64,000 nucleotides of DNA. Origin: Candidatus Hodarchaeota archaeon (GTDB lineage: Archaea > Asgardarchaeota > Heimdallarchaeia > Hodarchaeales > Hodarchaeaceae). Positions 37,354 through 58,751 of the stretch are shown here, piece after piece. The stretch lies in the NCBI GenBank assembly GCA_016839785.1, contig JAEOTQ010000177.1:30550-94549 (forward strand). The letters are read 5' to 3'. The translations under genes were made by a program, and so were the position numbers. Below the pieces are notes generated by a model. That model was not told the DNA's origin and did no database searches. It saw nothing but the letters and a program-made list of their open reading frames with translations. Each line of letters begins with the position of its first letter. Within the stretch, counting starts at the first letter, position 1.

Positions 37354-40300
37354 ATGAGAGACTTTTCTGAGGATAATCACTCGAATGCAGATTATTTGAA
37401 GAAGAGGTTACACCAAGGTCGACTGTTGATTCAATCGATAAAAACTCGCAAGTTACGGTCTGAACTAAAGTCAATCAAATCTCATACACGAACTAATATT
37501 CGCTCACAAACTCAAAAACTTACTAAATTTTCATGGCAAAGGAGTACCAGACAAAGAGGAGCAGGAATCATGCTCTCCTGGGGATTAGCCAGACGAAATG
37601 TCACTAGATCGAAATATCGTTCTTTTTTGTTGATTTTTGGTATTATGCTAACGGTTGCTCTTGAAACAGGTATTGTAATATCTGTTGATACGCTCTATGA
37701 TGATTTTGTTTTTGACCATCGAAATCAAAACTACACCGATATTACAGTCCATCCTATTAATTGGCAGAATCTCGCGAATATGACGCAAATGGCACAGAAA
37801 GTTGCAAAAACCCCAGGGGTGGTAAGAGCCAGTCCAGTATACTATACAAACATAGATAATCTATTTGGTCAAGCAGTCAAGAAGAGTAACATACTGATTT
37901 ATGGAATTGACTCAAAAACACACCCTGATTTTCGACGAATCAATATTACATTAGGTGAACGGAGTTTAAAGAATAATCGGATGATTATTTCCGATACATT
38001 GTATGATCAAGGTGGGTTAACTATAGGTGAGAGTGTTAATCTTAATGATTTAGGCCCCGAATACAAATCCCAAGAGATTACTCTCGGCGGAGTAATGGAT
38101 GATGAACCATTTTTCGGGAATAAAATCGGTTATGCATTCATTCTTCTTGATATAGAGCTTCTATATAATATTGTTTATGAAAATCAACTTATTTCTTTGT
38201 TATCAAGTGAAATTGATGTAGAAATCAATAGTATAGTAGATATCAAGAAAATTAGTGAAAATATCAAAGATGCTGTAGGGTTAAATTACTATGTTTTTTC
38301 AGAAAAAGATATTTCAGAGATTGAAGCATCAGGAATACGTGCCTATCAAACTGCAATGAATTTAGTTATCATGGCGTCATTCGTTGTGGAATTTTTGTTT
38401 ATTACGAATGTTCTCGCAATTTCAATTCGTGATAGATCAAAAGAATTCGGTATCATAAGAGCTATTGGGGGGAAAGCATACCAATTGATTGAATCTGTTG
38501 CATATGAAATCCTCATTTATTCCGCTATTGGCTGTACTATAGGAGTAGGAGTTGGAATTGCCCTTTCTTCTGTGTTAACAGGTGTAATGGATGATTATTA
38601 TGTGGGTCTTGAGTTTCAACAGCTTTCTATTCATACTACCTCACTTATTGTGACATATCTCTCAGGAGCCCTTGTTGCATTAATTTCGGGTCTTTATCCC
38701 ATCTTTTTAGCTATTTCCATGCCTGTAGTTCAAAATATTCATTCAAGGATGAGATCTGGATCATCTTTTGATACTTTAACTAATTCTTGGAAATATACCG
38801 TAGGGACTGGATTTCTTCTAGCCCTTGTTGGTTTTATTCTGCAATATTATGTAGGCCCTTCGCGCTTTCTTGATTTTGAAATATTATCTCTCCATTTTGT
38901 TGCAGTTCTTATGATTTTTATTGGAACTGTATTTCTAGAAATAGGAATCCTTGTGTTTCTACCAAAAATTGCCATGAAATTATTAATTGGATTCAGTTTC
39001 ATTACTCGTACGATTTCCACGAGAAATATTGCACGTGAATTTCAAAAATCGCTTTTTACAATAATGACGTCTGCTATGGCATTAACTTTCATAATTGTTG
39101 TCGGATTGATTAGTGCTGCTGTTATATCTGGTGTACCTGCATATTATGAAAATCAATGGGGAGCAATTGATCTTGTAGCGGAGACAAGAGATGCTGAACT
39201 CCTTCCTACAAGTACCACAAACCGAATAGATGGTATGAGTGGAGTTGTTCGGAGTTCATTCATACAAGAAGTGAGAACTGAGGTTGATAACACATCTAGT
39301 TATGTTTATGGTGTCGATCCCTTCAAGTATGTTTATTTTAGCGAACCACCTGTTGATAGTTTATCATCCTTCCAACCGTATGAACTACTTAGTCAATCAA
39401 ATGTTAACAGGACGAATGGTGTAATTTCTCATATCCTATATCAAAAACTTCGAGTTCCGCTAGGATCTAATATTTCTTTAAAGATCGCAACTAATTCAAC
39501 CGTAAATAATTCAATTGTAAAGAATTCAACCGTAGGTAATTCAACCGTAAAAATTAGAACAGTAAATGTAACTCTGACCGCAGTAGTTAAAGCCAATATA
39601 TTCTTGGGGAATGGGGAGTATTTATATATTCCCAGTGCACAATTTCGTGAATTTTTCAACTCGACTGTTGCAAAGTGGTTTCTATGTGATGTGGAGGAGG
39701 ATGAGGTTCAAAGAGTAAAGAGGAATCTAGAGTTTAATTTTCCAGAATTTAAAGAAGATGGCGTAGTTTCCATTACTTTTTTCACAGATATGATGAGAGA
39801 GAGTTTGATCTTTCAGTCAGCGATTTTCCAAGTCTTATTTTTTGAATCATTTATTTTAGCTGCCATTGCTCAATTTGTTTGCATTTTAGTATCAACTTTG
39901 CGAATGGAGCGTGAAATTGGAATAATGCGAAGCTTGGGATTGAATCGGAGAGGAGTTTTCGGAATATTTATGACAGAATCAATTGCATTAGGCATTTCAG
40001 CATTATTTGTTGGATTGTTTGATGGAATACTCGGTGCTGTACTGCTTGCGGATTATATCTCTGCATCGATTCCAATTTTTGTCTCGTTCCCTGCCACAAG
40101 TTTAATCATCTGGATGAGTATTTCCTTTCTAATAACAATTCTTAGTACCCTTCTCCCTTCATATCGATCAAGTCGTAAAAATATTGTCGCAACGATCTCT
40201 GGGCGTCCTATGGTAAAGGGATATGTCGATAAAGATCCATACCGTTTAAGATCGGAATTAAGAGCGGTTGAAAGCCCATGGCTTACCTCATATGGTTCTT

Positions 40301-41577
40301 CAAATCCAACTAATCCCTTTATGCATTATTCAGATGACCCTCTATCAGAATCCAGTCGAGTACGGAGAAGACAAAATCAAGTATCGTCTGCAATATCTCA
40401 AAGTAGTATCCTTCGGTTTATTCGGAATAATATTCTACCAGTTCAGACGATATTTTTGTTATTAATGGCAATAATTACGTTCAATTATATTCTTGATGAA
40501 AACATAATAATGCGAGGATTAAATATTTTTGACACCTTTATTAGATTTACCATGTCCTTAACAGAATATATTGATCCTCAGTATCAAGTTACATTCCTTA
40601 ACATTAATCCAGTTCTGGTTATTGTTGGACTTGCTGCTATAACCCCCATTGCGCATTATTTAACATACAAACAAGGCCCCGAATCTCTCCTTATTTCTGT
40701 TCTTGGAAGTATATTCTGGGCTTTCCTAGGGATAATAGTTATTATTTTTTCAATGTTAGTAACGGCTTCCCTTGTAATGATAATTCTAATACCAGTTCAG
40801 GAGAGAATTGGAGATTTTTCGACTCCAAATACGGTAGTGCTACTCGAATTTTCTAAACTTGGCTCATTACTTCTAGTTGGTGTCATTTTCTTTTATCTCT
40901 TTCAAAAATTTTGGTGTTTTATGACTATCCGTGGGATAGAACCAGAATTATCATACAGAGGACATCTTACTCTTGTTAAAACATATGGTTCAAGGGGAAA
41001 TATGGGATTCATATTTTTGCTTTTAGGTCATATCTTACTCCAAACTGTCTTATACTCAATTGCTGGCCCATTTTCATTGTCCGATCCGATATATCCCGAT
41101 CTATCCACAACCCCTCCGATTGGACCAATTGAATTCTTAATTTATTCTATTTATGAAGTTGGATATTACCTCTTACTAATCATATATACCATTGTACATT
41201 TTGGAAAATCGGTTAATTTAGCAAGGAGTGGTTCAGTCCAATATAAACCTGTTAAAGTGCAAATCCCTGCAGAAACTATTGTTAAAAGTCAAGAACTGGC
41301 AAATAAAATTCTAGTTGACAATGTAAAAGGCATTTCTCTAAACAAAAAAGGTATTCAACTATTTAGTGAGGTGATCAATGGCCAGAAACTTCTTTTTTTC
41401 CAAGAAAACGATAGTAAAATACCAGTAGCAATGAACTATGCACTCCATTTTCCAAAAGAGTACGTACCATTATCCGAAGAACATCCTACTCAAATAAAAG
41501 TACCAAATGCTGAACAAATCGAGCGGTTCGTACATCTAATGCAAGATTTCGAATTTAGAGAAGATGTAACTTCATAA
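37354..41577 (+). CDS. Giant (1407 aa) FtsX/MacB-like permease-domain membrane protein with an extra C-terminal polytopic region and a conserved cytoplasmic tail
   Basis: Two FtsX-like units (TM, large extracytoplasmic domain, then 3 TM with the conserved RxxE(F/I)G(I/T)(I/M)RAIG motif, seen as RSKEFGIIRAIGG and REIGIMRSLG). Additional TM helices in residues ~1000-1300. There is no adjacent ABC ATPase. Confidence 0.6.
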   Translation: MRDFSEDNHSNADYLKKRLHQGRLLIQSIKTRKLRSELKSIKSHTRTNIRSQTQKLTKFSWQRSTRQRGAGIMLSWGLARRNVTRSKYRSFLLIFGIMLTVALETGIVISVDTLYDDFVFDHRNQNYTDITVHPINWQNLANMTQMAQKVAKTPGVVRASPVYYTNIDNLFGQAVKKSNILIYGIDSKTHPDFRRINITLGERSLKNNRMIISDTLYDQGGLTIGESVNLNDLGPEYKSQEITLGGVMDDEPFFGNKIGYAFILLDIELLYNIVYENQLISLLSSEIDVEINSIVDIKKISENIKDAVGLNYYVFSEKDISEIEASGIRAYQTAMNLVIMASFVVEFLFITNVLAISIRDRSKEFGIIRAIGGKAYQLIESVAYEILIYSAIGCTIGVGVGIALSSVLTGVMDDYYVGLEFQQLSIHTTSLIVTYLSGALVALISGLYPIFLAISMPVVQNIHSRMRSGSSFDTLTNSWKYTVGTGFLLALVGFILQYYVGPSRFLDFEILSLHFVAVLMIFIGTVFLEIGILVFLPKIAMKLLIGFSFITRTISTRNIAREFQKSLFTIMTSAMALTFIIVVGLISAAVISGVPAYYENQWGAIDLVAETRDAELLPTSTTNRIDGMSGVVRSSFIQEVRTEVDNTSSYVYGVDPFKYVYFSEPPVDSLSSFQPYELLSQSNVNRTNGVISHILYQKLRVPLGSNISLKIATNSTVNNSIVKNSTVGNSTVKIRTVNVTLTAVVKANIFLGNGEYLYIPSAQFREFFNSTVAKWFLCDVEEDEVQRVKRNLEFNFPEFKEDGVVSITFFTDMMRESLIFQSAIFQVLFFESFILAAIAQFVCILVSTLRMEREIGIMRSLGLNRRGVFGIFMTESIALGISALFVGLFDGILGAVLLADYISASIPIFVSFPATSLIIWMSISFLITILSTLLPSYRSSRKNIVATISGRPMVKGYVDKDPYRLRSELRAVESPWLTSYGSSNPTNPFMHYSDDPLSESSRVRRRQNQVSSAISQSSILRFIRNNILPVQTIFLLLMAIITFNYILDENIIMRGLNIFDTFIRFTMSLTEYIDPQYQVTFLNINPVLVIVGLAAITPIAHYLTYKQGPESLLISVLGSIFWAFLGIIVIIFSMLVTASLVMIILIPVQERIGDFSTPNTVVLLEFSKLGSLLLVGVIFFYLFQKFWCFMTIRGIEPELSYRGHLTLVKTYGSRGNMGFIFLLLGHILLQTVLYSIAGPFSLSDPIYPDLSTTPPIGPIEFLIYSIYEVGYYLLLIIYTIVHFGKSVNLARSGSVQYKPVKVQIPAETIVKSQELANKILVDNVKGISLNKKGIQLFSEVINGQKLLFFQENDSKIPVAMNYALHFPKEYVPLSEEHPTQIKVPNAEQIERFVHLMQDFEFREDVTS
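39493..39567 (+). repeat. 5 x 15-bp in-frame tandem repeat (aattcaaccgtaaat-like) encoding NSTV(N/K/G) units
   Basis: The units aattcaaccgtaaat, aattcaattgtaaag, aattcaaccgtaggt, aattcaaccgtaaaa and attagaacagtaaat are seen directly. They encode N-S-T sequons in an extracytoplasmic loop of the giant protein. Confidence 0.8.
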
Positions 41578-41669
41578 TTATACCTGAATGATGAAATTCT
41601 CATATTAAGTATTCAGACAAGTATGTTTTTTAGAATCAATCTACTTTATCTGCATTAAACGTGTAAATT

Positions 41670-41722
41670 AATACAAAAATCTCTTGAATTCTTTAGTAAA
41701 TTAGTTGAACCTCATTGGAAAA
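41670..41722 (+). promoter_or_regulatory. Conserved leader/promoter element, copy A (paralog of 46020..46072)
   Basis: tacaaaaatctcttgaa...gtaaa(t/a)tagttgaa(c/t)ctcattggaaa is near-identical at the two loci, although the flanking coding sequence has diverged to ~70% identity. Confidence 0.35.
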
Positions 41723-41923
41723 TTTCACAACATTGATAAGAAAAATTTATTAAAATCATACCTCCTTCTGATAGGAGCCACACTAATTTGGGGAGGAAGC
41801 TGGCCCCTTGGCAGGTGGTTGGTGTCTGAGGAAGTGGGAGGAGAAACGATTCCCCAATCAATGATTGCTATTGTGAGGTATTTTATCGTAATTTGGGCAT
41901 TTATCTTGGTATTTTCTTTGTAA
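41705..41923 (+). pseudogene. Truncated 5' fragment (72 codons) of an EamA/DMT transporter paralog
   Basis: Its translation (KSYLLLIGATLIWGGSWPLGRWLVSEEVGGETIP...) aligns with the N-terminus of the intact 321-aa EamA protein at 46065..47030, then ends at a TAA stop after the first TM helix. Confidence 0.5.
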
Positions 41924-42040
41924 GAGTTAATAAAAAACACAAAATCATTAGGAAGCGATTTTTCCAAAAGGTTAGATAATTCAGAGATTGTATATATACC
42001 TAAAGAAATCACACATTTGAAATTAAGTAAATTTCTCTAG

Positions 42041-42712
42041 GTGACTAATTTGGTAATTGAGAGGCTTTACGAAGCGTTGAAGAAATCTGTAGAAGAATAT
42101 AAACCCGAAAAGGCTAAGAAGATTACTAAAGAACTCTTAGAAGCCCAGGTTGACCCCTTAAAAGTGTTAGATGAAGTACTGAATCCAACAATGGAAGAAA
42201 TAGGGGAGAAATTTGATAATATGGACATATTTTTACCTGATCTTATGGGTGCTGCTGAAGCAATGCAAGCGGCTACCTCCATCTTAACAGAACAGATTAA
42301 GAAAAGTTCCACTAAACCCACTGAATCGAAAGGGAAAGTTGTACTAGGAACAGTACTTGGAGATATTCATGAAATCGGGAAAAATATTGTTAAAATTATG
42401 CTAGAAACCTCAGGATTTGAAATATTTGATTTAGGAAAAGATGTTCCTTCTCTTAAGTTCATTGAAAAAGCTGAAGAAGTTAATGCAGATGTGATAGCTT
42501 TATCAGCACTTATGACAACTACAATGCATTCTCAGAGAGAAGTTATTGAACTATTAGAAGCGTTAGGAAAGCGTGATAATTATATAGTTCTTGTTGGTGG
42601 TAATCCAACTAGTGAAAATTGGAAAAAAGAGATAGGAGCTGATGGATGGGCTGAAACTGCAGTCGAAGCTACAAAGCTCATAACGAAAATGATTAGCGAG
42701 AAGGTGAGATAG
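42041..42712 (+). CDS. Methyltransferase cognate corrinoid protein (B12-binding, MtmC/MtbC/MttC-like)
   Basis: N-terminal helical cap, then the B12-binding signature GDIHEIGKNIV (DxHxxG), then SAL and LVGG. GTG start. Confidence 0.85.
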   Translation: MTNLVIERLYEALKKSVEEYKPEKAKKITKELLEAQVDPLKVLDEVLNPTMEEIGEKFDNMDIFLPDLMGAAEAMQAATSILTEQIKKSSTKPTESKGKVVLGTVLGDIHEIGKNIVKIMLETSGFEIFDLGKDVPSLKFIEKAEEVNADVIALSALMTTTMHSQREVIELLEALGKRDNYIVLVGGNPTSENWKKEIGADGWAETAVEATKLITKMISEKVR

Positions 42713-44098
42713 ATGGGCACTCCTCCTTGGCGTATCAATGAAGTACTAGATAGAGCACAAAATGGACCAATCTGCTTAGAAAAGGATTTTGATTCTAACC
42801 TCTTTGTACCCGAACTTAAGAGAGTAATTAAGGAGTATGATATTTGTTTTGATAAATTGACACCCGTACCTTCTGATGATACTCTAGCAGATAGTATTTG
42901 GAAAGCCGCTATGGATTTTTACCTCACGGTGGGAACTCTTTGCACTGATACTTATCGTAGAATTGTTTTTACAGAAAATGAAATAAAGGAAGCTCTAGGA
43001 AATTTTCCTGGAAGGTTCACATTGGGCTTTGGACGTGATTCAAGAGAAATTACTGGTAGACAAATCGAAGATAAACGAAGACCTTTCTGTCTCTTTTCAC
43101 CTGACATCACATGTGACGAAGATCTTTTTGTTCCCATGAGTATGGCATATTTACAGGAACCTCTAGCTGATGGTGTTTGTGCTCCAATTCTTGATGAAAT
43201 TGAGGGTATGTCAATTCGATCTGGTTCTCCATCCGAAATAAAGGGATCAGTCGCGCATGCCATGATGTTTAGAGAGGCTGCAAGACGAGTTGGTCGTCCT
43301 GGAATTTTTCTTAAGAGTGTAGGAACCGCAGAGTCTGACGCAGCTCAAATCGCAGCCAGCAATCCTGAATGGGGAGAAAGATTAACTGATGGACGATTTG
43401 TGGCTAGTGTAACAGAACTGAAAGTGGATAATTCACTCTTGAACAAAATGGTACATTTTCATACATATGGTTGTTTTGTAGGAGCACTTACGGGTCCTAT
43501 TTTTGGAGGATTTGCTGGGGGCCCTGAAGGTACTGCTATTGTTGGCCTTGCTTATCATTTACAAGGATTACTTGTGAATCAAGCACATTTCTTAAATTAT
43601 TTTCCGTTTCACTTGAAACACACTTGTAATACAATGCGTGAGCTTCTTTGGGTAATCTCTATCACCTATCAAGCCTTATCTCGGAACAGTAATTTAATCT
43701 CTCTGTCTAATGGATTTACTGCAGCTGGACCATGTACCCCCATGGTCTTAAGAGAGGCCGCAACTCACTCACTTGTAAGTGTTGTTTCCGGTTCTAATCT
43801 TTGGGAAATAGCTGTCGCTAAGAATAGGAATAAGAACTTCGCCACACCCATGGAAGCTAGGATTGCCTGTGAAGTCGGTTGTGGAGCAGCAAAAGAAAGG
43901 ATTTCAAGAAGTGATGCGAATGAGATTGCGCTAGCTCTTCTTAAAACTTATGAAGAAGATATCGAGAACGCACCACTAGGGAAGAGCTTTCGTGATTGCT
44001 ATAATATACGAAAGATTAAACCTTCAGTAGAATATATGGATCTCTTCAATAGAATGAAAAAAGAACTAAAGGACAATGGTGTTCCATTCGTATATTAA
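42713..44098 (+). CDS. MtmB-family (monomethylamine:corrinoid methyltransferase-like) protein without pyrrolysine
   Basis: Blocks shared with Methanosarcina MtmB as I remember it: CTDTYRRIVFTENEI, GRPG, PIFGGFAGGPEGTAIVGLAYH, AAGPCTPMVLREAA, TPMEARIACEV, APLGKSFRDCYNIRKIKPSVEYM...KELKDNGVPF. The ORF is continuous with no in-frame TAG. The stop of the corrinoid gene abuts this ATG. Confidence 0.75.
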   Translation: MGTPPWRINEVLDRAQNGPICLEKDFDSNLFVPELKRVIKEYDICFDKLTPVPSDDTLADSIWKAAMDFYLTVGTLCTDTYRRIVFTENEIKEALGNFPGRFTLGFGRDSREITGRQIEDKRRPFCLFSPDITCDEDLFVPMSMAYLQEPLADGVCAPILDEIEGMSIRSGSPSEIKGSVAHAMMFREAARRVGRPGIFLKSVGTAESDAAQIAASNPEWGERLTDGRFVASVTELKVDNSLLNKMVHFHTYGCFVGALTGPIFGGFAGGPEGTAIVGLAYHLQGLLVNQAHFLNYFPFHLKHTCNTMRELLWVISITYQALSRNSNLISLSNGFTAAGPCTPMVLREAATHSLVSVVSGSNLWEIAVAKNRNKNFATPMEARIACEVGCGAAKERISRSDANEIALALLKTYEEDIENAPLGKSFRDCYNIRKIKPSVEYMDLFNRMKKELKDNGVPFVY

Positions 44099-44333
44099 CG
44101 TGCTTTCCTAATTCAAATTTGACCATATTCAGGTTCTATCTAGTTACATAAGATAATTACATTAAACCGTTTCACAATGTCTACAAAGATCTTCTCATCT
44201 TATTTGTGAAATATTTTCAGCAATATTTGTTGCATATGTTACTCAAAGGATCACTCGACAACCTGGATACAAAAGCATTCAGAAGAAATCTGAATGTCTA
44301 ATTGAACACACTTCGAAGACGTTCCAAATCTTA

Positions 44334-44704
44334 AAGACGTGGAGGGTTCAATAATCTCATAAAACCAACCAACTTCAGATCACTAAATCTTGCTTGTTGA
44401 GAATCTTCTGGGTGAATGTCGTGTTTATTAAAATAATCATATACATCGGTAAGGAATTCTTTTACTAATTCACCTTGTATTTCAATAACATCTCGTTTTA
44501 TGCTCCTATTTATAGGATGTTTCTTTTTACGTTCTTCTTGGATCTTCCACCCATTATTCAGTCGTTCTATGGTTTCATGTAGATCAATTTTTATTGTATC
44601 AAGGGAGTATAACTTTGCATACGATAAAAATCGTTGAGAAGCGAATATAATGAATGAGATAACTACAATAATAGTGTCTGCAATAACTAGTATTATAATC
44701 AGTC
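44334..44704 (-). pseudogene. 123-codon stop-free reading frame without a start codon: possible gene remnant
   Basis: It translates to protein-like sequence (...HETIERLNNGWKIQEERKKKHPINRSIKRDVIEIQGELVKEFLTDVYDYFNKHDIHPEDSQQARFSDLKLVGFMRLLNPPRL*). No ATG, GTG or TTG lies upstream in frame. An open frame of this length is unlikely by chance in ~31% GC DNA. Confidence 0.3.
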
Positions 44705-44886
44705 TTATAACTGTTTATATTCTACATACGCCGTTGGGGTGTCGTCTAGGTATCCATAAATATAAACAAGAAGGAATGGCAACATCTACACCAATAGAAT
44801 ATCACATGATCTGTTTAAGATGTGGCAAACCGAAAACTGTTTTTAGGAAAAGGAAAAAAAATAATTACAGAAACTCAAGTATTTAG
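44650..44886 (+). CDS. Small protein: N-terminal TM helix plus zinc-ribbon-like Cys pairs (doubtful)
   Basis: 78-aa ORF with TM ITTIIVSAITSIIISLITVYIL and Cys pairs C..C / C..C. It overlaps the minus-strand remnant. Confidence 0.25.
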   Translation: MNEITTIIVSAITSIIISLITVYILHTPLGCRLGIHKYKQEGMATSTPIEYHMICLRCGKPKTVFRKRKKNNYRNSSI

Positions 44887-44959
44887 TCTCTATTTGAATA
44901 AAATTTTTAAAAACTATACCACAGAAGCGAAATTTAGTCTTTTCTGAGGTTTAGGAAAA

Positions 44960-45634
44960 ATGAACAAAGGTTTTTTATTTTTGATCGTGATCCTTTTAGG
45001 TCTTTCTTTTGCGACCTATCCTTTACCTGTTGAGGGAGCAGTGATTCATAATGAAACTTCCCTCTTTCAACCGCTTTCGATTTCGGAACTCAGTCTATCC
45101 GGGAGGTTCTATTTTGAGAATAGTTCAGAACTGAATTCAATCTTTCGGTTATTATACTATTCTGCGGTACGTATCGGGGAAAAATATAATGTGTCTTTCA
45201 GTTTAGACAGTAATTCAACGACAAACGTGCGAATTACTTGTTCTATTAGTCCTAATATGTGGGAGGGCCCTACAGAGATAAATCTTCAACCCTTTGAGAC
45301 AAAGAGTCAGATTTATTTCTCCCATGTCTGTGGGGATAATCTAGATGTGATTAGTCCAGTCTTCAAACTCCAGTTAATGAATAGTACAGCTAAGGTGAGC
45401 GGATATTATGAAGCAGTCTTGTTATTTGCTGGATATCAACACCCCTCCTGTGGGATTGGCCAAATAATCGTTTCAAATATTACACAATGGTTATTCGATA
45501 TTTCATCTAGTAAGACTACTAGTACGACTACTAGTAACACTACCTCCGATGTGACCAGAGAATTTCTAATTTATGTCTTCCTCGGGCCAATACTTATTGC
45601 ATTCAAAAGGAAAAGGCTATTATTTACCAGATGA
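44960..45634 (+). CDS. Secreted/surface-anchored glycoprotein (signal peptide, N-glycosylation sequons, Thr/Ser stalk, C-terminal TM plus basic tail)
   Basis: N-terminal signal FLFLIVILLGLSFA. Several N-x-S/T sequons (NETS, NSS, NVS, NST, NIT). Stalk SSSKTTSTTTSNTTS. C-terminal helix EFLIYVFLGPILIAF followed by KRKR. Confidence 0.55.
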   Translation: MNKGFLFLIVILLGLSFATYPLPVEGAVIHNETSLFQPLSISELSLSGRFYFENSSELNSIFRLLYYSAVRIGEKYNVSFSLDSNSTTNVRITCSISPNMWEGPTEINLQPFETKSQIYFSHVCGDNLDVISPVFKLQLMNSTAKVSGYYEAVLLFAGYQHPSCGIGQIIVSNITQWLFDISSSKTTSTTTSNTTSDVTREFLIYVFLGPILIAFKRKRLLFTR

Positions 45635-45782
45635 TTGTGGTATTCCAAAAATCTATATCGAATTATTATGTGAATCCAAAAAACAACATAATCGTGTTTT
45701 TATTTGGATTAGATACCGTTTTTCGACATTATTTCATATCTTAGGTGTCTATTTGGTGTGTGCGCGAAGCACACTGTCGTGT

Positions 45783-45947
45783 GATTCAATTGAGATACAT
45801 ATGATTTATACCTTTCATTTCACAAATGAGTATACAGTATTATCCGAAGATCTTAAAACTAAAGTAAAAGTCCCAAATGCTGATCAAATACAACGATTCA
45901 TGCATCTAATGAATGACATAGAGTTTACACAAGAAACGTCTATTTAA
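45783..45947 (+). CDS. Short ORF whose ~55-aa C-terminal module is paralogous to the tail of the 1407-aa protein
   Basis: MIYTFHFTNEYTVLSEDLKTKVKVPNADQIQRFMHLMNDIEF aligns with MNYALHFPKEYVPLSEEHPTQIKVPNAEQIERFVHLMQDFEF. The track's upstream part (45573..) overlaps the glycoprotein gene in another frame and is probably not coding. Confidence 0.3.
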   Translation, partial: DSIEIHMIYTFHFTNEYTVLSEDLKTKVKVPNADQIQRFMHLMNDIEFTQETSI

Positions 45948-46019
45948 AGACACAAAAATGACAGACAAATGACATTTTTTCTACAACACTTATTTTGTAC
46001 TGCCATATCAAAGGAAATA

Positions 46020-46072
46020 ACTACAAAAATCTCTTGAAATTTCAAGTAAAATAGTTGAATCTCATTGGAAAG
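46020..46072 (+). promoter_or_regulatory. Conserved leader/promoter element, copy B
   Basis: See 41670..41722. Confidence 0.35.
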
Positions 46073-47030
46073 CACCCAAAACGTAGAAAGAAAATATGAA
46101 CTGAAATCATACCTCCTTCTGATATTAGCCACGCTAATTTGGGGAGGAAGCTGGCCCTTAAGCAGATGGTTAGTCTCCGAGGAAGTAGGTGGTGAAACTA
46201 TTCCACCTTTAATGGTTGGGATCTTGAGGTATTTCATAGCTATTTGGGTTTTTTTCTTTTTATTACGATGGCGTGAGGGTACAATTAACTTTCCTGCTGT
46301 AACCGACCACTGGAAATCTATATTTCTAATGGGGTTGACTTCTGTAACCATTTACCAAATTGGTTTTTTATATGGAGAATATTATACAGCTGCAAGTGAT
46401 GCAAGTCTAATTGTGGCAACAAATCCAATCTGGGTCTTCATATTATCTGGATTCTTTCTGGGTGAAGGTTTTGGATGGAAAAAGGCAACAGGTGTCCTAT
46501 TAGCATTTTTTGGGGTCTTATTCGTTGTAGGATTTTCACCCAATGTAGATGTCCCAAATCGATTTCTAGGCACTCTCTTCATCCTTTTTGCTGCATTAGG
46601 TTACTCTACATATACGATTATTTATCGACACTACATTAATGGATTTGATACACCCTCTGACAAACCCTCTTCACTTTTTGTTATCACATGGGTTTCTTTC
46701 TTCGGTTTTCTTATCACAACTCCAATTTCATTGGTTTTGAATCCAGAATATTTAAACCTTTTTCAATATTTGCAAATTCCCGAACGTATCTGGCTTGGAG
46801 CGGCGTATTTATCATTATTATCAACGGTGGTTGCTTATTGGTTATATTTAGAGGCCGTTAAGAGGTTGAATGCCAGCCGTGCTGCAATCTTCATAAATTT
46901 AGTACCCGTATGGGGGGTTTCATTATCAGTTCTTTTTTTGGGGGAATTACTTGATCCATTAGTCCATACTTCAGCCTTCATTTTAATTTCCTTGGGAATA
47001 TTCTTAGTGAATCGGAGTCAAAATGGGTAA
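46065..47030 (+). CDS. EamA/DMT-superfamily transporter (10 TM)
   Basis: 321 aa with two EamA-like halves (…ATLIWGGSWPL…; …FAALGYSTYTIIYR…). Apparent TTG start. Confidence 0.8.
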   Translation: MESTQNVERKYELKSYLLLILATLIWGGSWPLSRWLVSEEVGGETIPPLMVGILRYFIAIWVFFFLLRWREGTINFPAVTDHWKSIFLMGLTSVTIYQIGFLYGEYYTAASDASLIVATNPIWVFILSGFFLGEGFGWKKATGVLLAFFGVLFVVGFSPNVDVPNRFLGTLFILFAALGYSTYTIIYRHYINGFDTPSDKPSSLFVITWVSFFGFLITTPISLVLNPEYLNLFQYLQIPERIWLGAAYLSLLSTVVAYWLYLEAVKRLNASRAAIFINLVPVWGVSLSVLFLGELLDPLVHTSAFILISLGIFLVNRSQNG

Positions 47031-47145
47031 CAGAATTTAAAATCCAATTTCACCAAAATAAAATAACTAGATTCCAACTTTTGATATCTAGCATATGTAT
47101 CCTGAAGTTTATTAGAAATTAGTAAATTTTGCCTCTTGATGCTGG

Positions 47146-48468
47146 ATGCCAGAATATGAATTTTTACTTCAAATAGGACTAATTTTAACAATTGGTGTTA
47201 TCGGTTCGGATGTTTTAAAGAAGATAAACTTTCCAGAAATTCTGGGGTTTCTTCTAGTGGGAGTTTTTCTCAATCTTTTTTTCATAATTAATGGACATGA
47301 AATTAATTTAACGGAGCTTTTGGATATTGTCGTTGCTGTTACCTTAGGGTTCATTGGATTCAATCTAGGTTCAGAAATCGATTGGAATACAATTAAAAAT
47401 ATGTCCACGAATATTATAATTATTCTACTCTTTGAATCTCTTCTCACATTTGCTGCTGTAACAGTAGTGGTTTATGCCTTATCATTCCCACTACATGTTG
47501 CGTTAGTTTTTGGTGCACTGGCATCGGCAACAGCACCTGCAGGAACTGCTGCAATATTCTGGGAAAATCATTGTATAGGGCCATTGACAACAGCAACAAT
47601 GTTCATACTTGCTCTAGATGATATTGTCGCGATTATATTAACAGACTTGGCAATGGATTATTCTACTATTGTATACAGTGGTCATGCTTTAAATCTCACA
47701 GAATTATTCTTACCCATAGTTTTTGATCTATCGGCTTCATTTATGTTAGGGATTACGGCTGGACTATTAATTGTTTATGCATTAAACCGAGTGGAAGATC
47801 ATGGACGATATGTAAGCCTCGTAGTTGGTTCTATCTTAATGTGTATCGGTGTTGCAAGCATTCTGAATATTTCTTACATTTTACCTACAATGGTATTCGG
47901 AATAACTGTTTCTAGTCTTTGTAAAAAGCCAGACATTGACTATCCAACAAAAAAGGTTTTACGGGAAGTACTCGGTTTATCCTCGCCAAAGTTAATGGAG
48001 ATTATCTATAATAAGAAGAAAAATGGAGAATTCAAGACTGAACCTCACCAGATATTTCATGAAGTATTTCGAATTTCAACCCCCATAATCGCTTTGTTCT
48101 TCATTCTAATTGGCATAAGTCTCGATTTAACCTCTTTATTTGATATAGGACTTATTGGAATAGTCTACATGCTCACTAGGACCCTTGCTAAGAGTGGTGG
48201 GGCATATTTTGGTGGAATTGTGGCTAAAGCGCAACCAGTAGTCCAGAAATATTTAGGCCTATGTCTGTTATCTCAAGCAGGAGTAGCGCTAGGACTGGCT
48301 GTTATTATTTCAGAACATTTTGCGCAATTTGGTACCGAAGCAGGAGCTCTCGGTATTTTCATCTTAAATACAATTACCGCTAGTACAATAATATTTCAAA
48401 TTTTTGGACCTGTCGCCATAAAATGGGCGATTGACAAATCAGGAGAGGGGAATGGTCAAAGCTGCTAA
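47146..48468 (+). CDS. Cation/proton-antiporter-like (CPA superfamily) membrane protein
   Basis: 440 aa with ~12 TM and a NapA/KefB-like helix pattern including discontinuous-helix Gly motifs (ALASATAPAGTAAIF). Weak family assignment. Confidence 0.45.
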   Translation: MPEYEFLLQIGLILTIGVIGSDVLKKINFPEILGFLLVGVFLNLFFIINGHEINLTELLDIVVAVTLGFIGFNLGSEIDWNTIKNMSTNIIIILLFESLLTFAAVTVVVYALSFPLHVALVFGALASATAPAGTAAIFWENHCIGPLTTATMFILALDDIVAIILTDLAMDYSTIVYSGHALNLTELFLPIVFDLSASFMLGITAGLLIVYALNRVEDHGRYVSLVVGSILMCIGVASILNISYILPTMVFGITVSSLCKKPDIDYPTKKVLREVLGLSSPKLMEIIYNKKKNGEFKTEPHQIFHEVFRISTPIIALFFILIGISLDLTSLFDIGLIGIVYMLTRTLAKSGGAYFGGIVAKAQPVVQKYLGLCLLSQAGVALGLAVIISEHFAQFGTEAGALGIFILNTITASTIIFQIFGPVAIKWAIDKSGEGNGQSC

Positions 48469-48496
48469 ATTAGTCATGACTTTTAATCCTCTGTTT

Positions 48497-50077
48497 TCAT
48501 GAGTTTAATCGATGATAGGCTTTCTTGTTATTCTTGTAAAGCAAGAGAAATTCTTTGAATATCCTGTCATACAATTTAACATTCTGAGGATTAGGAGTAA
48601 AGGTTTTAGAAACATGAATTAAGTGAGGTATTTCTTCAACTTTAATAAAGCCTAATGCGACCGAAGCGATAAAAGCCGCGCCTCGAGCATTCGCTTGGAT
48701 TGGATCTTTGATTTGTCTAATAGTGCGGTTTAGGACATCTGCGTAAATTTGACACCAGATATCTGATTTGGCACCTCCACCAATAATGTTAAGCGGATTT
48801 AATCGTCGCTTAGTAAATTTCTCAACATATTTTAACACCCAGCGACTATTATAAGCAACACCTTCAAATACAGCTCTTATAATCTCTTCTTTTTTAGTGG
48901 TCAAAGAAATATTAAAGATATTTCCTCTTAATTTATGATCTTCGACAGGTGTTCGTTCTCCATATAGCCAGGGAGTGAAAATTACTCCATTACTACCTGC
49001 AGGTACCTGTTCTACAAGCTTGTCAAACGATTGATAGACCTCTGAATTTCCATAGAGATCTTCATTGTCAGAATAAAAGATGTTATCACGTAGGAAGGTT
49101 AAACTGGCTCCAGCTGTTTCCTGTTCGTTCACTACAAAATACCTTCCTGGAATAACTGAAGGAATTGAAGCTATGTTATGACTGATATCTGTTTTCTTAT
49201 AGGGAACATGACAGATCAACCATGAACTTGTTCCAATATAGATATGACCCTGATAGTCGTTAATAGCTCCAGACCCGATGACCGCAGATTGGAGGTCAGG
49301 TGCGCCCATGGCTACTTTAACATCATGCTTTAACCCTAATTCATCAGCCACATCTGGTTTAATATCACCCAGGATAGAGGTGGGAGAATGGAGGTCAGGA
49401 AATTTATTTCTCTCAACTTTTAGTCGTTTAATCAGGCCTTCATCATAATGCACGTTGTCAATATTTCGGTTATTTGTTATCCAATGAAGAATGATAGAAG
49501 TTGTTGAAGCTGCAAATTTCCCAGTAAACTTCAAATTGAGGTAGTCAATACATTCAAGAAATTTGTAAGTCTTCTCATAAATTTCTGGGTATTTATATTT
49601 AATAAACAGAATATGGGAGATAGGATCCTTCCCAGAATGAGTTGGCGCTCCACCTGTCTTGTAAAGAAATCGAATAATATCTCTCAGCGGATATCCAGAA
49701 ATTTTAATTAATCCTCGAAAGACTTTTTCTTTCAAATATTTCGCTCCCCGAGCGTCCATCCATATTATAGCATTCATTAAGGGGTTTCCCTGTTCATCAA
49801 CTGCAACGGTTCCTGACCACTGAGAAGAGGAGGAAACAGCAATAATATCTTCAACTGGAACAATTTCTTTTGCTAATAATTCTTTTGATGTATTAAGAAT
49901 AGCTTGCCACCATTCATTTGGGTTCTGCTCTGCTCCTCCTTGATCCTGAAAATAAACAGGAGTATGTTCATACACGAAATCTAAAACTTCCCCGTGTGTT
50001 GAAACAAGGGCAGTTTTCATTCCAGATGTACCATGATCGATTGCTAGAACGTATTTCTTTGAGGAAGTAGATGTCAT
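48497..50077 (-). CDS. FGGY-family carbohydrate kinase
   Basis: LAIDHGTSGMKTALV (the phosphate-1 DxGT motif), GAPD..SAVIGSG, and C-terminal GGGAKS. Confidence 0.8.
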   Translation of the reverse strand: MTSTSSKKYVLAIDHGTSGMKTALVSTHGEVLDFVYEHTPVYFQDQGGAEQNPNEWWQAILNTSKELLAKEIVPVEDIIAVSSSSQWSGTVAVDEQGNPLMNAIIWMDARGAKYLKEKVFRGLIKISGYPLRDIIRFLYKTGGAPTHSGKDPISHILFIKYKYPEIYEKTYKFLECIDYLNLKFTGKFAASTTSIILHWITNNRNIDNVHYDEGLIKRLKVERNKFPDLHSPTSILGDIKPDVADELGLKHDVKVAMGAPDLQSAVIGSGAINDYQGHIYIGTSSWLICHVPYKKTDISHNIASIPSVIPGRYFVVNEQETAGASLTFLRDNIFYSDNEDLYGNSEVYQSFDKLVEQVPAGSNGVIFTPWLYGERTPVEDHKLRGNIFNISLTTKKEEIIRAVFEGVAYNSRWVLKYVEKFTKRRLNPLNIIGGGAKSDIWCQIYADVLNRTIRQIKDPIQANARGAAFIASVALGFIKVEEIPHLIHVSKTFTPNPQNVKLYDRIFKEFLLLYKNNKKAYHRLNS

Positions 50078-50099
50078 TTCTCAATTCTCCGTGAATTTT

Positions 50100-51320
50100 T
50101 CATATAGTAATTTTTTCGATATTTCCCTCTGCATCAATAGACTCGATAGTTAGAGGGGAGGATCCTCCACTAGCAGTTTCTAAACTAAGATGCTCTTGTA
50201 ATATCCCTAAAAATTCCATAGGATCCACACATGCCTCAGGGGGAAGGACTCCTTTATCAGTGACGAGTCCACGCTGTAACATGATTGCTCCAAAGGCCAC
50301 TGGCATTCCAGTACCCTCACCAAGTGCCTGATCAGCTGATGCAAGTGAAAATACAATTGTATGTTCTAAATCAGCTTTTTTTCCCTTAACAACAATTTTG
50401 ACACATCCACGTTGGGTACCAAAGTTGGATTCTTTTAGTATCCGTTCACGAGCATGAATTATGTACGATATTGCGAAATCAATTGGTTTAATTTTATCTC
50501 GAGTACCTTCAACATTAATCGGGGTTTCCTCATGCAGACCATTCTTCACCAAGTCAACAATTAAATAAAAATATTCAGGAGGAAGTACGGTTCCTTTATT
50601 GGTAACACGTTTCACATTCGGAATAAATTGAGGAATCGTAATCGTTTCAGGATGAGGATAGGGGTGTACACGGCAGATGCCTAATTTTTCGAACTCTACG
50701 TCCTCTTCTAAGGATTTGCCTTCATCACTGAAAAAATTAACAGTTTTAAAGCTTCCATCAATGAAAACAGGAATATCTGTTGTCATAGCATGGATTCGAT
50801 GGAAAATAACTCCTGGCCCTTCCGTGGGTTCCCCTCCATGAGCATGATACAAATCTATAGAATCAACCTCATCCAGTAAGTCAGTTGCAGCAAACCTAGC
50901 AAGAATATTAGTGACACCAGGAGAGCTACCTAATCCGATTATTGCAGATACTTCTGTAGCTTTTGCCTCGGAATGCATATTCAGTGCAAGTTGTGTTGCA
51001 TCAACATCATCGCTTACATCCACGTAATTTTTACCTGCTTGAATAGCAGCTTTAAGTACCAGAGGTCCATATTTATAAAAAGGGCCTATTGTATTAACTA
51101 CAACATCAAACTCTTTCAGAATGTCAACTAATCTATCAAAATTATTAACATCAATCTTTTGAAAAAAAATTTTCTCAGGATTGGTTTGAATTAATTCTTG
51201 CCCTTTATTGGAATTAATATCTCCAATTACAACCTCAGAAAAGTCAGGAAAGGCCGCAAGTGTCTTTATTGCAATACTTCCGACTACCCCACATCCCCCA
51301 AGACAGATTACCCTTGCCAT
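50100..51320 (-). CDS. Saccharopine-dehydrogenase-like NAD(P)-binding oxidoreductase
   Basis: N-terminal Rossmann motif VICLGGCGVVGS. Length ~400 aa, consistent with the Sacchrp_dh family. Confidence 0.55.
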   Translation of the reverse strand: MARVICLGGCGVVGSIAIKTLAAFPDFSEVVIGDINSNKGQELIQTNPEKIFFQKIDVNNFDRLVDILKEFDVVVNTIGPFYKYGPLVLKAAIQAGKNYVDVSDDVDATQLALNMHSEAKATEVSAIIGLGSSPGVTNILARFAATDLLDEVDSIDLYHAHGGEPTEGPGVIFHRIHAMTTDIPVFIDGSFKTVNFFSDEGKSLEEDVEFEKLGICRVHPYPHPETITIPQFIPNVKRVTNKGTVLPPEYFYLIVDLVKNGLHEETPINVEGTRDKIKPIDFAISYIIHARERILKESNFGTQRGCVKIVVKGKKADLEHTIVFSLASADQALGEGTGMPVAFGAIMLQRGLVTDKGVLPPEACVDPMEFLGILQEHLSLETASGGSSPLTIESIDAEGNIEKITI

Positions 51321-51615
51321 AAGTTATTTCTCCTAGGAATACAGTGAGTAGTTAATTAATCATTATCCCTTGAGAACTTTTTTAATAAAATATATCATCC
51401 TAGATCTTGCTCGCTTGTTATAGTAGAATTCAGAAATTTCTCTTGTACAAAAGATCTTTGTGATGGATTCATTCCCAAGCGAGCAACATTACTTTATCCA
51501 CATTAAATTTCACGAAATAATTCAAAATTTGTATAAAAGGAATCAAGATGTATTTTTGAGGAATAAATCTCCATCAGACAAAATTATATCACATTAACTT
51601 AAAGAAGGACAAATT

Positions 51616-58666: not shown

Positions 58667-58751
58667 AATAAATCGATCTCATAGACAATGTTTTATTGAT
58701 AAGTTTGGAGCAACAGGAAACCTATATATAGGTTTCCTTCATATATCTTAA

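Follow-up and report, generated by a model that had tools for sequence, protein, structure and literature searches.

Two diverged copies of a permease-transporter gene junction flank a methyl-corrinoid cassette in a Hodarchaeales archaeon: the probable scar of a recent cassette insertion

The stretch of DNA analyzed here, called the window below, comprises 64,000 nucleotides of contig JAEOTQ010000177.1 of a Candidatus Hodarchaeota archaeon (assembly GCA_016839785.1, positions 30,550 to 94,549). In this window the gene of a giant FtsX-like permease and the gene of an EamA transporter are separated by a cassette of two genes, encoding a corrinoid protein and an MtmB-family methyltransferase, and on each side of the cassette lies a copy of the junction between the permease and transporter genes. 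The left copy is referred to as A and the right copy as B. The features of the locus, in window coordinates, are the following.

37354..41577, forward strand: intact giant permease gene, 1407 amino acids, with MacB_PCD, two FtsX regions and a long C-terminal extension
41431..41577, forward strand: tail A, the last 48 codons and the stop of the giant gene, functional, left end of copy A
41578..41714, forward strand: leader A, an unconserved spacer and a decaying EamA upstream block (41651-41714)
41715..41923, forward strand: EamA 5' pseudogene fragment of copy A, orthologous TTG start at 41715
41924..42040, forward strand: left junction spacer, with the cassette's own TATA-like box TTGTATATATACC (~41989-42001)
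42041..42712, forward strand: corrinoid (B12-binding) protein gene (Pfam B12-binding, 5e-27)
42713..44098, forward strand: MtmB-family methyltransferase gene (Pfam MtmB, 1e-96)
44099..44238, forward strand: non-coding stretch after the MtmB-family gene, the original right end of the insert
44239..45797, no strand: 1.56-kb segment of the window lineage only, with CATATG on both sides
45801..45947, forward strand: tail B, orphan giant-gene terminus (last 48 codons and stop) at the left end of copy B
45948..46064, forward strand: leader B, the region upstream of the working EamA gene (probable promoter and 5' untranslated region)
46065..47030, forward strand: intact gene of an EamA/drug-metabolite transporter (DMT), 321 amino acids (Pfam EamA, 5.3e-39, two stretches)
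47146..48468, forward strand: Na+/H+ exchanger gene, a conserved downstream neighbor and synteny anchor (Pfam Na_H_Exchanger, 3e-24)

Comparison of the window with itself by BLAST gave a single direct repeat, 41446-41913 against 45816-46264, with 71.5% identity over 477 columns (E=1.2e-56); the other self-match is a 24-bp palindrome (58715-58738). MAFFT alignment carried the homology to 41431, which corresponds to 45801 at an offset of 4370. Copy A is made up of the last 49 codons of the giant gene (stop included), 137 nt of intergenic DNA and the 5' piece of an EamA gene. Copy B is made up of the last 49 codons of a 124-codon open reading frame (ORF), an intergenic region and the 5' end of the intact EamA gene, whose first ~67 codons (to ~46264) form its right end. 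The coding parts of the two copies align without gaps, the intergenic part contains indels and is ~20 nt shorter in B, and the longest identical runs are 24 nt (at 41783) and 21 nt (at 41753). Between the copies lie the corrinoid gene, the MtmB-family gene and then ~1.7 kb of poorly coding DNA. A first-pass annotation, made from the sequence letters, had proposed that a unit of this composition is present twice, and this was confirmed by both comparisons: there is one long repeat, and its sequence has no low-complexity character. The match had also been described as base-for-base and beginning at 45811; the homology is real, but the coordinate is off by ~10 nt, the intergenic part carries indels and copy A has a 1-nt deletion.

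The giant gene lies directly 5' of an intact EamA gene, single-copy and uninterrupted, in all five related Heimdall/Hodarchaeales lineages: B3_Heim (L001), a lineage from Joint Genome Institute (JGI) samples (L003/L004), Heimdall MAG_8 (L011), Hodarchaeota YT2_004 (L012) and the P0242/P0007 contig. In L001, L003, L011 and L012 the giant-gene orthologues share 70-71% amino acid identity, and in the same four of five an Na+/H+ exchanger gene (84-91% amino acid identity) directly follows EamA. The EamA protein of the window belongs to the EamA/DMT family (PF00892) by its two EamA domains and is 83% identical in amino acids to CEE45_02010 of B3_Heim. Neither the corrinoid/MtmB cassette nor a second copy of the repeat was found at the orthologous locus in any of the five lineages, which answers the question, raised in the first-pass annotation, of whether relatives carry a full-length giant gene before an intact EamA gene: they do, free of the cassette. 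The ancestral gene order is giant FtsX-like permease, EamA transporter and Na+/H+ exchanger, in single copy. Since the relatives have this conserved junction uninterrupted, the window shows an insertion into it, with direct repeats of the target on either side of the inserted DNA.

The window lineage has a sister population, which an exact-sequence look-up traced to four JGI samples and three metagenome-assembled genomes (MAGs) at NCBI. Its loci, L051-L057 with the fragment L002, share 96.5-97.6% identity with the window and have the order giant gene, copy A, corrinoid gene, MtmB-family gene, tail fragment, EamA. Since both copies and the cassette are found there too, the repeat is older than the split of the two populations, and since both copies occur in at least four independent assemblies of the sister population, an assembly artefact is excluded. 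Between window and sister, functional genes are 2-3.7% diverged (dS, the synonymous divergence, 0.05-0.15). The alignment of window positions 34497-56004 with L051 is strongly mosaic, with identical runs of 848, 845, 553 and 479 nt and a 7%-diverged block (48458-51529) adjoining identical runs. Identity over as much as 848 nt demonstrates active homologous recombination, and the mosaic indicates that it is frequent between the window lineage and the sister population. The Na+/H+ exchanger segment (47085-48457) is cleanly missing in L002 and L051-L057, where an FGGY kinase gene stands directly after EamA.

The EamA stub of copy A, which keeps 72 of the 321 codons, is a pseudogene and is now evolving neutrally. 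Behind the TTG start at 41715 a 1-nt deletion, common to window and sister, moves the reading frame to a TAA at 41751; from the start to the KSY motif copy A has 40 nt, versus 41 nt in B, L001, L002 and L003. The 72-codon ORF that can be read from an alternative TTG (41705-41923) is fortuitous, its product has no match in Pfam, and its reading as an ORF conserved across populations is contradicted by the comparison of window and sister. In this comparison 20 of 171 stub positions differ (11.7%), with 5 synonymous and 14 non-synonymous changes. The ratio of non-synonymous to synonymous divergence (omega) is 0.85, and the non-synonymous divergence (dN) is 0.128, versus 0.016 for the intact EamA gene. 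Measured against 119 homologues, the sister stub contains an in-frame TAG and the changes W33Q, Y59H and T48P at invariant or nearly invariant residues, the window stub contains P51Q at a position that is proline in 119 of 119, and both contain L24G and L52S, residues which none of the 119 has at these positions. The pseudogene status given to this piece in the first-pass annotation therefore stands. Leader A is 8-11% diverged from the sister and has two 1-nt indels, approximately the neutral level, while tail A differs at 3 of 147 positions. As leader A decays at the rate of the stub, copy A 3' of the giant-gene stop codon is neutral DNA.

This neutrality is recent. We reconstructed the stub as it was at the population split by polarising the differences between window and sister against B, L001, L003 and L012. 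The ancestral stub, KSYLLLIGATLIWGGSWPLGRWLVSEEVGGETIPPSMIAIVRYFIVIWVFFFV, in pattern form KSYLLLI[L]ATLIWGGSWPLGRWLVSEEVGGETIPP[L]MIAIVRYFIVIWVFFF, had only two aberrant residues and one frameshift. Its omega is 0.04-0.12 against functional orthologues and 0.07 against their consensus at a dS of 0.62, and its dS is 0.6-0.7 to the consensus or to B (0.71 to B versus 1.16 to L001). The first-pass annotation had proposed an ancient segmental duplication of ~480 bp, with copy A decayed since. An in-situ duplication of this unit alone, with the redundant halves decaying ever since, would account for the same orientation of the repeats and for the truncated EamA of copy A, but it predicts an omega of ~1 on the A lineage and of at least ~0.5 for the pair. 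The values observed are 0.10, which cannot be distinguished from the 0.07-0.13 on the branches of functional genes, and 0.13-0.21. It would also have to accommodate so little damage after a dS of ~0.6-0.7, coding stubs (150-170 nt) which are both free of indels whereas the intervening spacer is saturated, orphan branches that are not longer than functional ones, and the lack of support for A and B as sisters. Constraint was thus not relaxed over the whole divergence of A and B: omega was low earlier and 0.85 only recently. Along the repeat, A-B identity has the same profile as that between orthologues, with the coding parts and the upstream block conserved and the spacer at random level.

As the ancestral omega (~0.07) is low, nearly all the divergence of the stub from other EamA genes was gained under strong purifying selection. 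We infer from these substitution patterns that ~85-90% of the A-B divergence arose while both copies were inside working genes, and the two copies thus resided in giant-EamA loci that each worked until a short time before the population split. Divergence gained in working genes excludes an ancient 480-bp duplication with slow decay, and the duplication in its literal form is very improbable. The damage in tail B is similar in amount to that which stub A had at the split, and would fit with one event having created both stubs. Recent gene conversion between A and B was considered and rejected, because identity follows orthologue conservation (the best 40-nt window reaches 0.90 versus 0.82-0.85 to L001). 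A breakpoint at 41431 was likewise not retained, since the difference in identity to L001 between the pre-tail and tail parts (69% versus 56%) is non-significant.

Tail B belongs to an ORF (45573-45947, 124 codons) that is homologous to the giant gene in its last 49 codons only; 5' of the ATG at 45801 the homology is absent. Tails A and B align without indels at 69% nucleotide and 52% amino acid identity, and tail B is closer, with 62-65% amino acid identity, to the tails of L001, L011 and L003. In pattern form, a donor's tail of this type would resemble M[N]YTFHF[P]NEYTVLSEDLKTKVKVPNADQIQRFMHLMNDIEFTQETSI. The first-pass annotation had suggested that the tail is a module functionally linked to the EamA transporter, and one may extend this to a 48-residue interaction or regulatory peptide translated from the ATG at 45801, and/or to leader A driving the cassette. 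Such a role is suggested by the ATG and open frame, by the absence of any difference from the sister over 147 positions, by the annotation of the ORF as a 48-51-residue gene in sister assemblies and by the conserved adjacency of giant gene and EamA in the clade. The adjacency is simply conserved gene order. The identity of tail B to the sister is uninformative because the two populations often share identical runs of 200-850 nt, the run containing tail B being the 11th in rank among them; it is explained by recombination mosaicism, and we rejected it as evidence of purifying selection.

The structure of the giant protein also speaks against a tail with a role of its own. The unusually large permease (Pfam FtsX 1.5e-21, MacB_PCD 1.1e-9) ends in a long, multi-transmembrane C-terminal extension and also carries an Asn/Ser/Thr-rich repeat stretch (…NSTVNNSIVKNSTVGNSTVK…). 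Its C-terminal 407 residues gave one match in a word-index protein search, which found hardly any of the known orthologues of the giant gene. The terminal domain (window 41203-41574, residues 1284-1407) has 11 relatives among 1.84 billion representative proteins, most of them C-termini of giant-gene fragments, and homologues conserve residues ~19-121 of the last 124. The domain matches no Pfam family, and a Foldseek search against the PDB gave no significant match (best E=0.26). An alignment-based AlphaFold2 model of the 124-residue query has a mean predicted local distance difference test score (pLDDT) of 84, and above 90 across the domain core; it supersedes a single-sequence model with a pLDDT of 39. 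The model places the domain at ~20-116, with helices at 23-39, 77-82 and 103-115 and strands at 45-48, 51-58, 61-67, 87-89 and 97-99. The repeated fragment begins at residue 77, inside the domain, and holds the C-terminal 40% of ~100 residues, without the first helix and the three-stranded beta-sheet. Because it starts inside the modelled fold, the fragment is not an autonomous module; its conserved residues are altered too, tail B carrying N78I and P84T at positions conserved at 90% or more in 10 homologues.

The upstream regions point the same way. Leader A, copy B and L001/L011 have in common the blocks TACAAAAATCTCTTGA and AGTAAA(A/T)TAGTTGAACCTCATTGG, of which L003 and L012 contain diverged versions. 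Across lineages these blocks lie directly 5' of the TTG start of EamA, and they are best read, from their position and conservation, as its probable promoter and 5' untranslated region. A regulatory RNA in the leader was rejected: a scan with Rfam gave no credible match (best E=0.25, to an animal miRNA model), and RNAalifold predicted four pairs, none of them covarying. Capture of this promoter by the cassette was rejected as well. In the 117 nt that precede the corrinoid gene, 3 positions differ from the sister (97% conserved), while the adjacent leader A is decaying at ~11%; the cassette uses its own promoter. With leader A and the EamA stub neutral, and the promoter region of the cassette itself conserved, functional stubs seem improbable. 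Nothing demonstrates a function for either of them or a link of the tail to EamA, and both are best read as dead fragments.

The cassette has a different history from its flanks. Its closest copy (L005, positions 411-2497) is 90.8% identical in nucleotides over 42028-44114 only, with a dS of 0.33-0.36 and 93% amino acid identity in MtmB, and weak similarity to the L005 region 5' of the corrinoid gene begins at ~41985-42028. In L005 the cassette is convergent to a DUF1232 gene, an EamA homologue (69% amino acid identity) and a giant-gene homologue (38%), and copies in Hodarchaeum mangrovi (87% amino acid identity) stand in unrelated contexts. Because the closest copy is found in a different context beside diverged homologues, the cassette is clearly acquired DNA with a history foreign to its flanks. 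The MtmB-family gene is an uninterrupted ORF of 461 codons with no in-frame amber codon. The proximity of cassette and EamA is seen again in L005, and EamA might import the methylated substrate of the cassette. The first-pass annotation had the operon inserted exactly at the point where copy A is truncated; it does lie between the copies, but ~60-110 nt beyond the end of the homology.

The right end of the insert is seen more simply in the sister population, where the 140 nt following the MtmB-family gene (44099-44238, 92.8-93.6% identity to L002/L051) abut the tail fragment directly. The junction segments 41914-42040 and 44099-44238 have matches only in the sister population. The left copy supplies the giant gene with a working 3' end and a displaced 3' end lies beyond the insert, as would be expected if a site-specific integrative element had replaced the 3' end of its target gene with the repeats as att sites. 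Nevertheless, no integrase or recombinase was found with Pfam and NCBIfam among the ORFs of 41924-45800, and the insert of the sister consists of two metabolic genes and 140 nt. Moreover, the repeats are 480 bp long, 30% diverged, have no identical run above 24 nt and span a promoter and a second gene. An integrative element is the least probable of the explanations that we weighed.

All these observations are probably, though by no means certainly, explained by one event: the repeat would be what a recent gene-cassette insertion left behind, a scar between two homologous loci that had diverged. The cassette would have arrived along with DNA of a related Hodarchaeales lineage, about as distant as B3_Heim, and this DNA would have recombined with the resident locus by way of the 480 bp homologous to it, through a single crossover of the Campbell type or with only one end homologous. 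The outcome would be direct repeats, 30% diverged, in one step. The left copy completes the giant gene and ends in a dead EamA stub, and the right copy begins with a dead giant-gene stub, followed by the working EamA gene. That the two genes had been "lost reciprocally", as the first-pass annotation put it, calls for no explanation of its own. Whenever a repeat covers the 3' end of one gene and the 5' end of the next and lies on both sides of an insert, the first gene stays whole on the left and the second on the right, so the pattern is a geometric consequence of the position of the repeat, whether the second copy was imported or was an old paralogue. For import from a related lineage, with the cassette included, the chances stand at about even. 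It fits with the single-copy relatives, the acquired cassette, the presence of related lineages side by side in single samples (L003 with L052 in 3300041086, L004 with L051 in 3300041080) and the recombination mosaicism between window and sister.

The relationship of the two copies to the relatives was examined by maximum likelihood (Jukes-Cantor model with gamma-distributed rates) over all 15 topologies and 407 sites, from which the stub's recent decay had been taken out. The highest likelihood belongs to ((L001,B),A,(L003,L012)), with a bootstrap proportion by resampling of estimated log-likelihoods (RELL) of 0.56, while trees that unite A, B and L001 against L003/L012 together receive 0.755. 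A and B as sisters receive 0.048, on a branch of zero length. Distances, quartets and neighbor-joining show a star-like pattern for A, B, L001/L011, L003 and L012. Copy A is estimated to be about as far from B as B3_Heim is, and a sister relationship of A and B is disfavoured. On the left as on the right, the identities of the flank to L001 and L003 give a star-like pattern, and separate histories of the two flanks were therefore dropped as a candidate.

Several points weigh against an insertion between diverged loci. The tree with A and B as sisters is worse by only 1.6 log-likelihood units on 407 sites, which is no firm rejection. No donor was found, the best matches being 87% identical in amino acids for the ancestral orphan A and 65% for tail B, and in a metagenome scan with the orphan peptide the relatives among the matches listed reach at most 75% identity. 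Sliding A-B identity revealed no crossover point or mosaic boundary, and the phylogeny covers ~400 sites. At the novel junctions, EamA codon ~70 to cassette and cassette to giant-gene codon 1359, the flanking 60-140 nt match nothing outside the sister population. Finally, the uniqueness of the repeat applies to the 64-kb window, and a second giant-EamA locus elsewhere in the genome would lie beyond that scope.

Part of this evidence would suit old full-length tandem paralogues, giantA-EamA_A and giantB-EamA_B, whose interior, from the 3' part of EamA_A to the 5' 4 kb of giantB, was recently replaced by the cassette or deleted around it. This is the nearest workable version of the duplication proposed in the first-pass annotation. 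It explains equally well that the stubs diverged under purifying selection and became neutral recently. By dS the copy nearest to A is B rather than L001, and the grouping of A, B and L001 and the small likelihood cost of A-B sisterhood suit it too. However, neither two units nor an A-type EamA gene was found in any of the five related lineages sampled, the best tree pairs B with L001 and leaves A outside, two copies of a 4.2-kb gene would have been retained for long in one lineage and lost several times independently elsewhere, and the replacement would need ends placed exactly such that one of each gene survived. Tandem paralogues are for these reasons possible but clearly less probable than insertion between diverged loci.

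The window lineage differs from the sister population also by the 1.56-kb segment between the right end of the insert and tail B, which is absent from L002 and L051-L057. With CATATG on both sides it is a candidate for a microhomology deletion or an insertion. It contains three ORFs, with no Pfam or NCBIfam family among them.

~44280-44600, reverse strand: start-less ORF remnant of ~105 codons
44650-44886: Cys-containing ORF of 78 amino acids
44960-45634: protein of 224 amino acids with a signal peptide, a Thr-rich linker and a C-terminal transmembrane anchor

The 24-bp self-match at 58715-58738 is a perfect palindrome, AGGAAACCTATATATAGGTTTCCT, between two divergently placed ORFs, and may be a bidirectional TATA or operator element.

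Known systems offer several parallels. In Campbell-type integration, as here, direct repeats of the target surround the insert, both flanking genes are whole, insert-free relatives have one copy and a crossover of one repeat with the other would remove the insert without a trace of error; in contrast, the repeats here are 30% diverged (homeologous), no circular donor was identified and it is metabolic genes that were inserted, not a plasmid or vector. In naturally transformable bacteria, foreign DNA is anchored by homology at one end in homology-facilitated illegitimate recombination. This resembles our locus in the acquired DNA beside a homologous anchor, the novel junctions without homology and the remnants left of the resident sequence. 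However, that system is known from bacteria and is not known to operate in Asgard archaea, and the anchor side is ambiguous here. Prophage e14 and phage 21 integrate into icd of Escherichia coli and replace its 3' end. The target gene then works with an incoming diverged 3' end while the original one is orphaned beyond the insert, as at our locus, but e14 relies on an integrase and a short att core, whereas our insert lacks a recombinase and our repeat extends over two genes and a promoter. Tandem duplication with reciprocal loss also leaves one intact copy of each gene plus remnants, but no relative has the two-unit intermediate, A-B sisterhood is unsupported and acquired DNA lies between the remnants.

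It is conceivable, though unlikely, that the ~480-bp giant/EamA junction serves as a portable homology arm, the cassette looping out via the repeats and re-inserting at this conserved junction in other Hodarchaeales. If this were true, operons of MtmB and corrinoid genes would move between Asgard lineages without a recombinase of their own. A side possibility is that the retained 48-residue tail ORF may be expressed. For annotation, the ORFs of 72 and of 48-124 amino acids at this locus are to be regarded as gene remnants. The locus reveals no new kind of system; it adds one more case to a familiar type of event and has modest interest for the dynamics of Asgard genomes. It provides a clean and datable example of a Hodarchaeales archaeon gaining a methyl-corrinoid operon at a conserved locus, with the event recorded in gene stubs. 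These stubs suggest recombination between lineages ~30% apart, which bears on the extent of gene flow in Asgard genomes.

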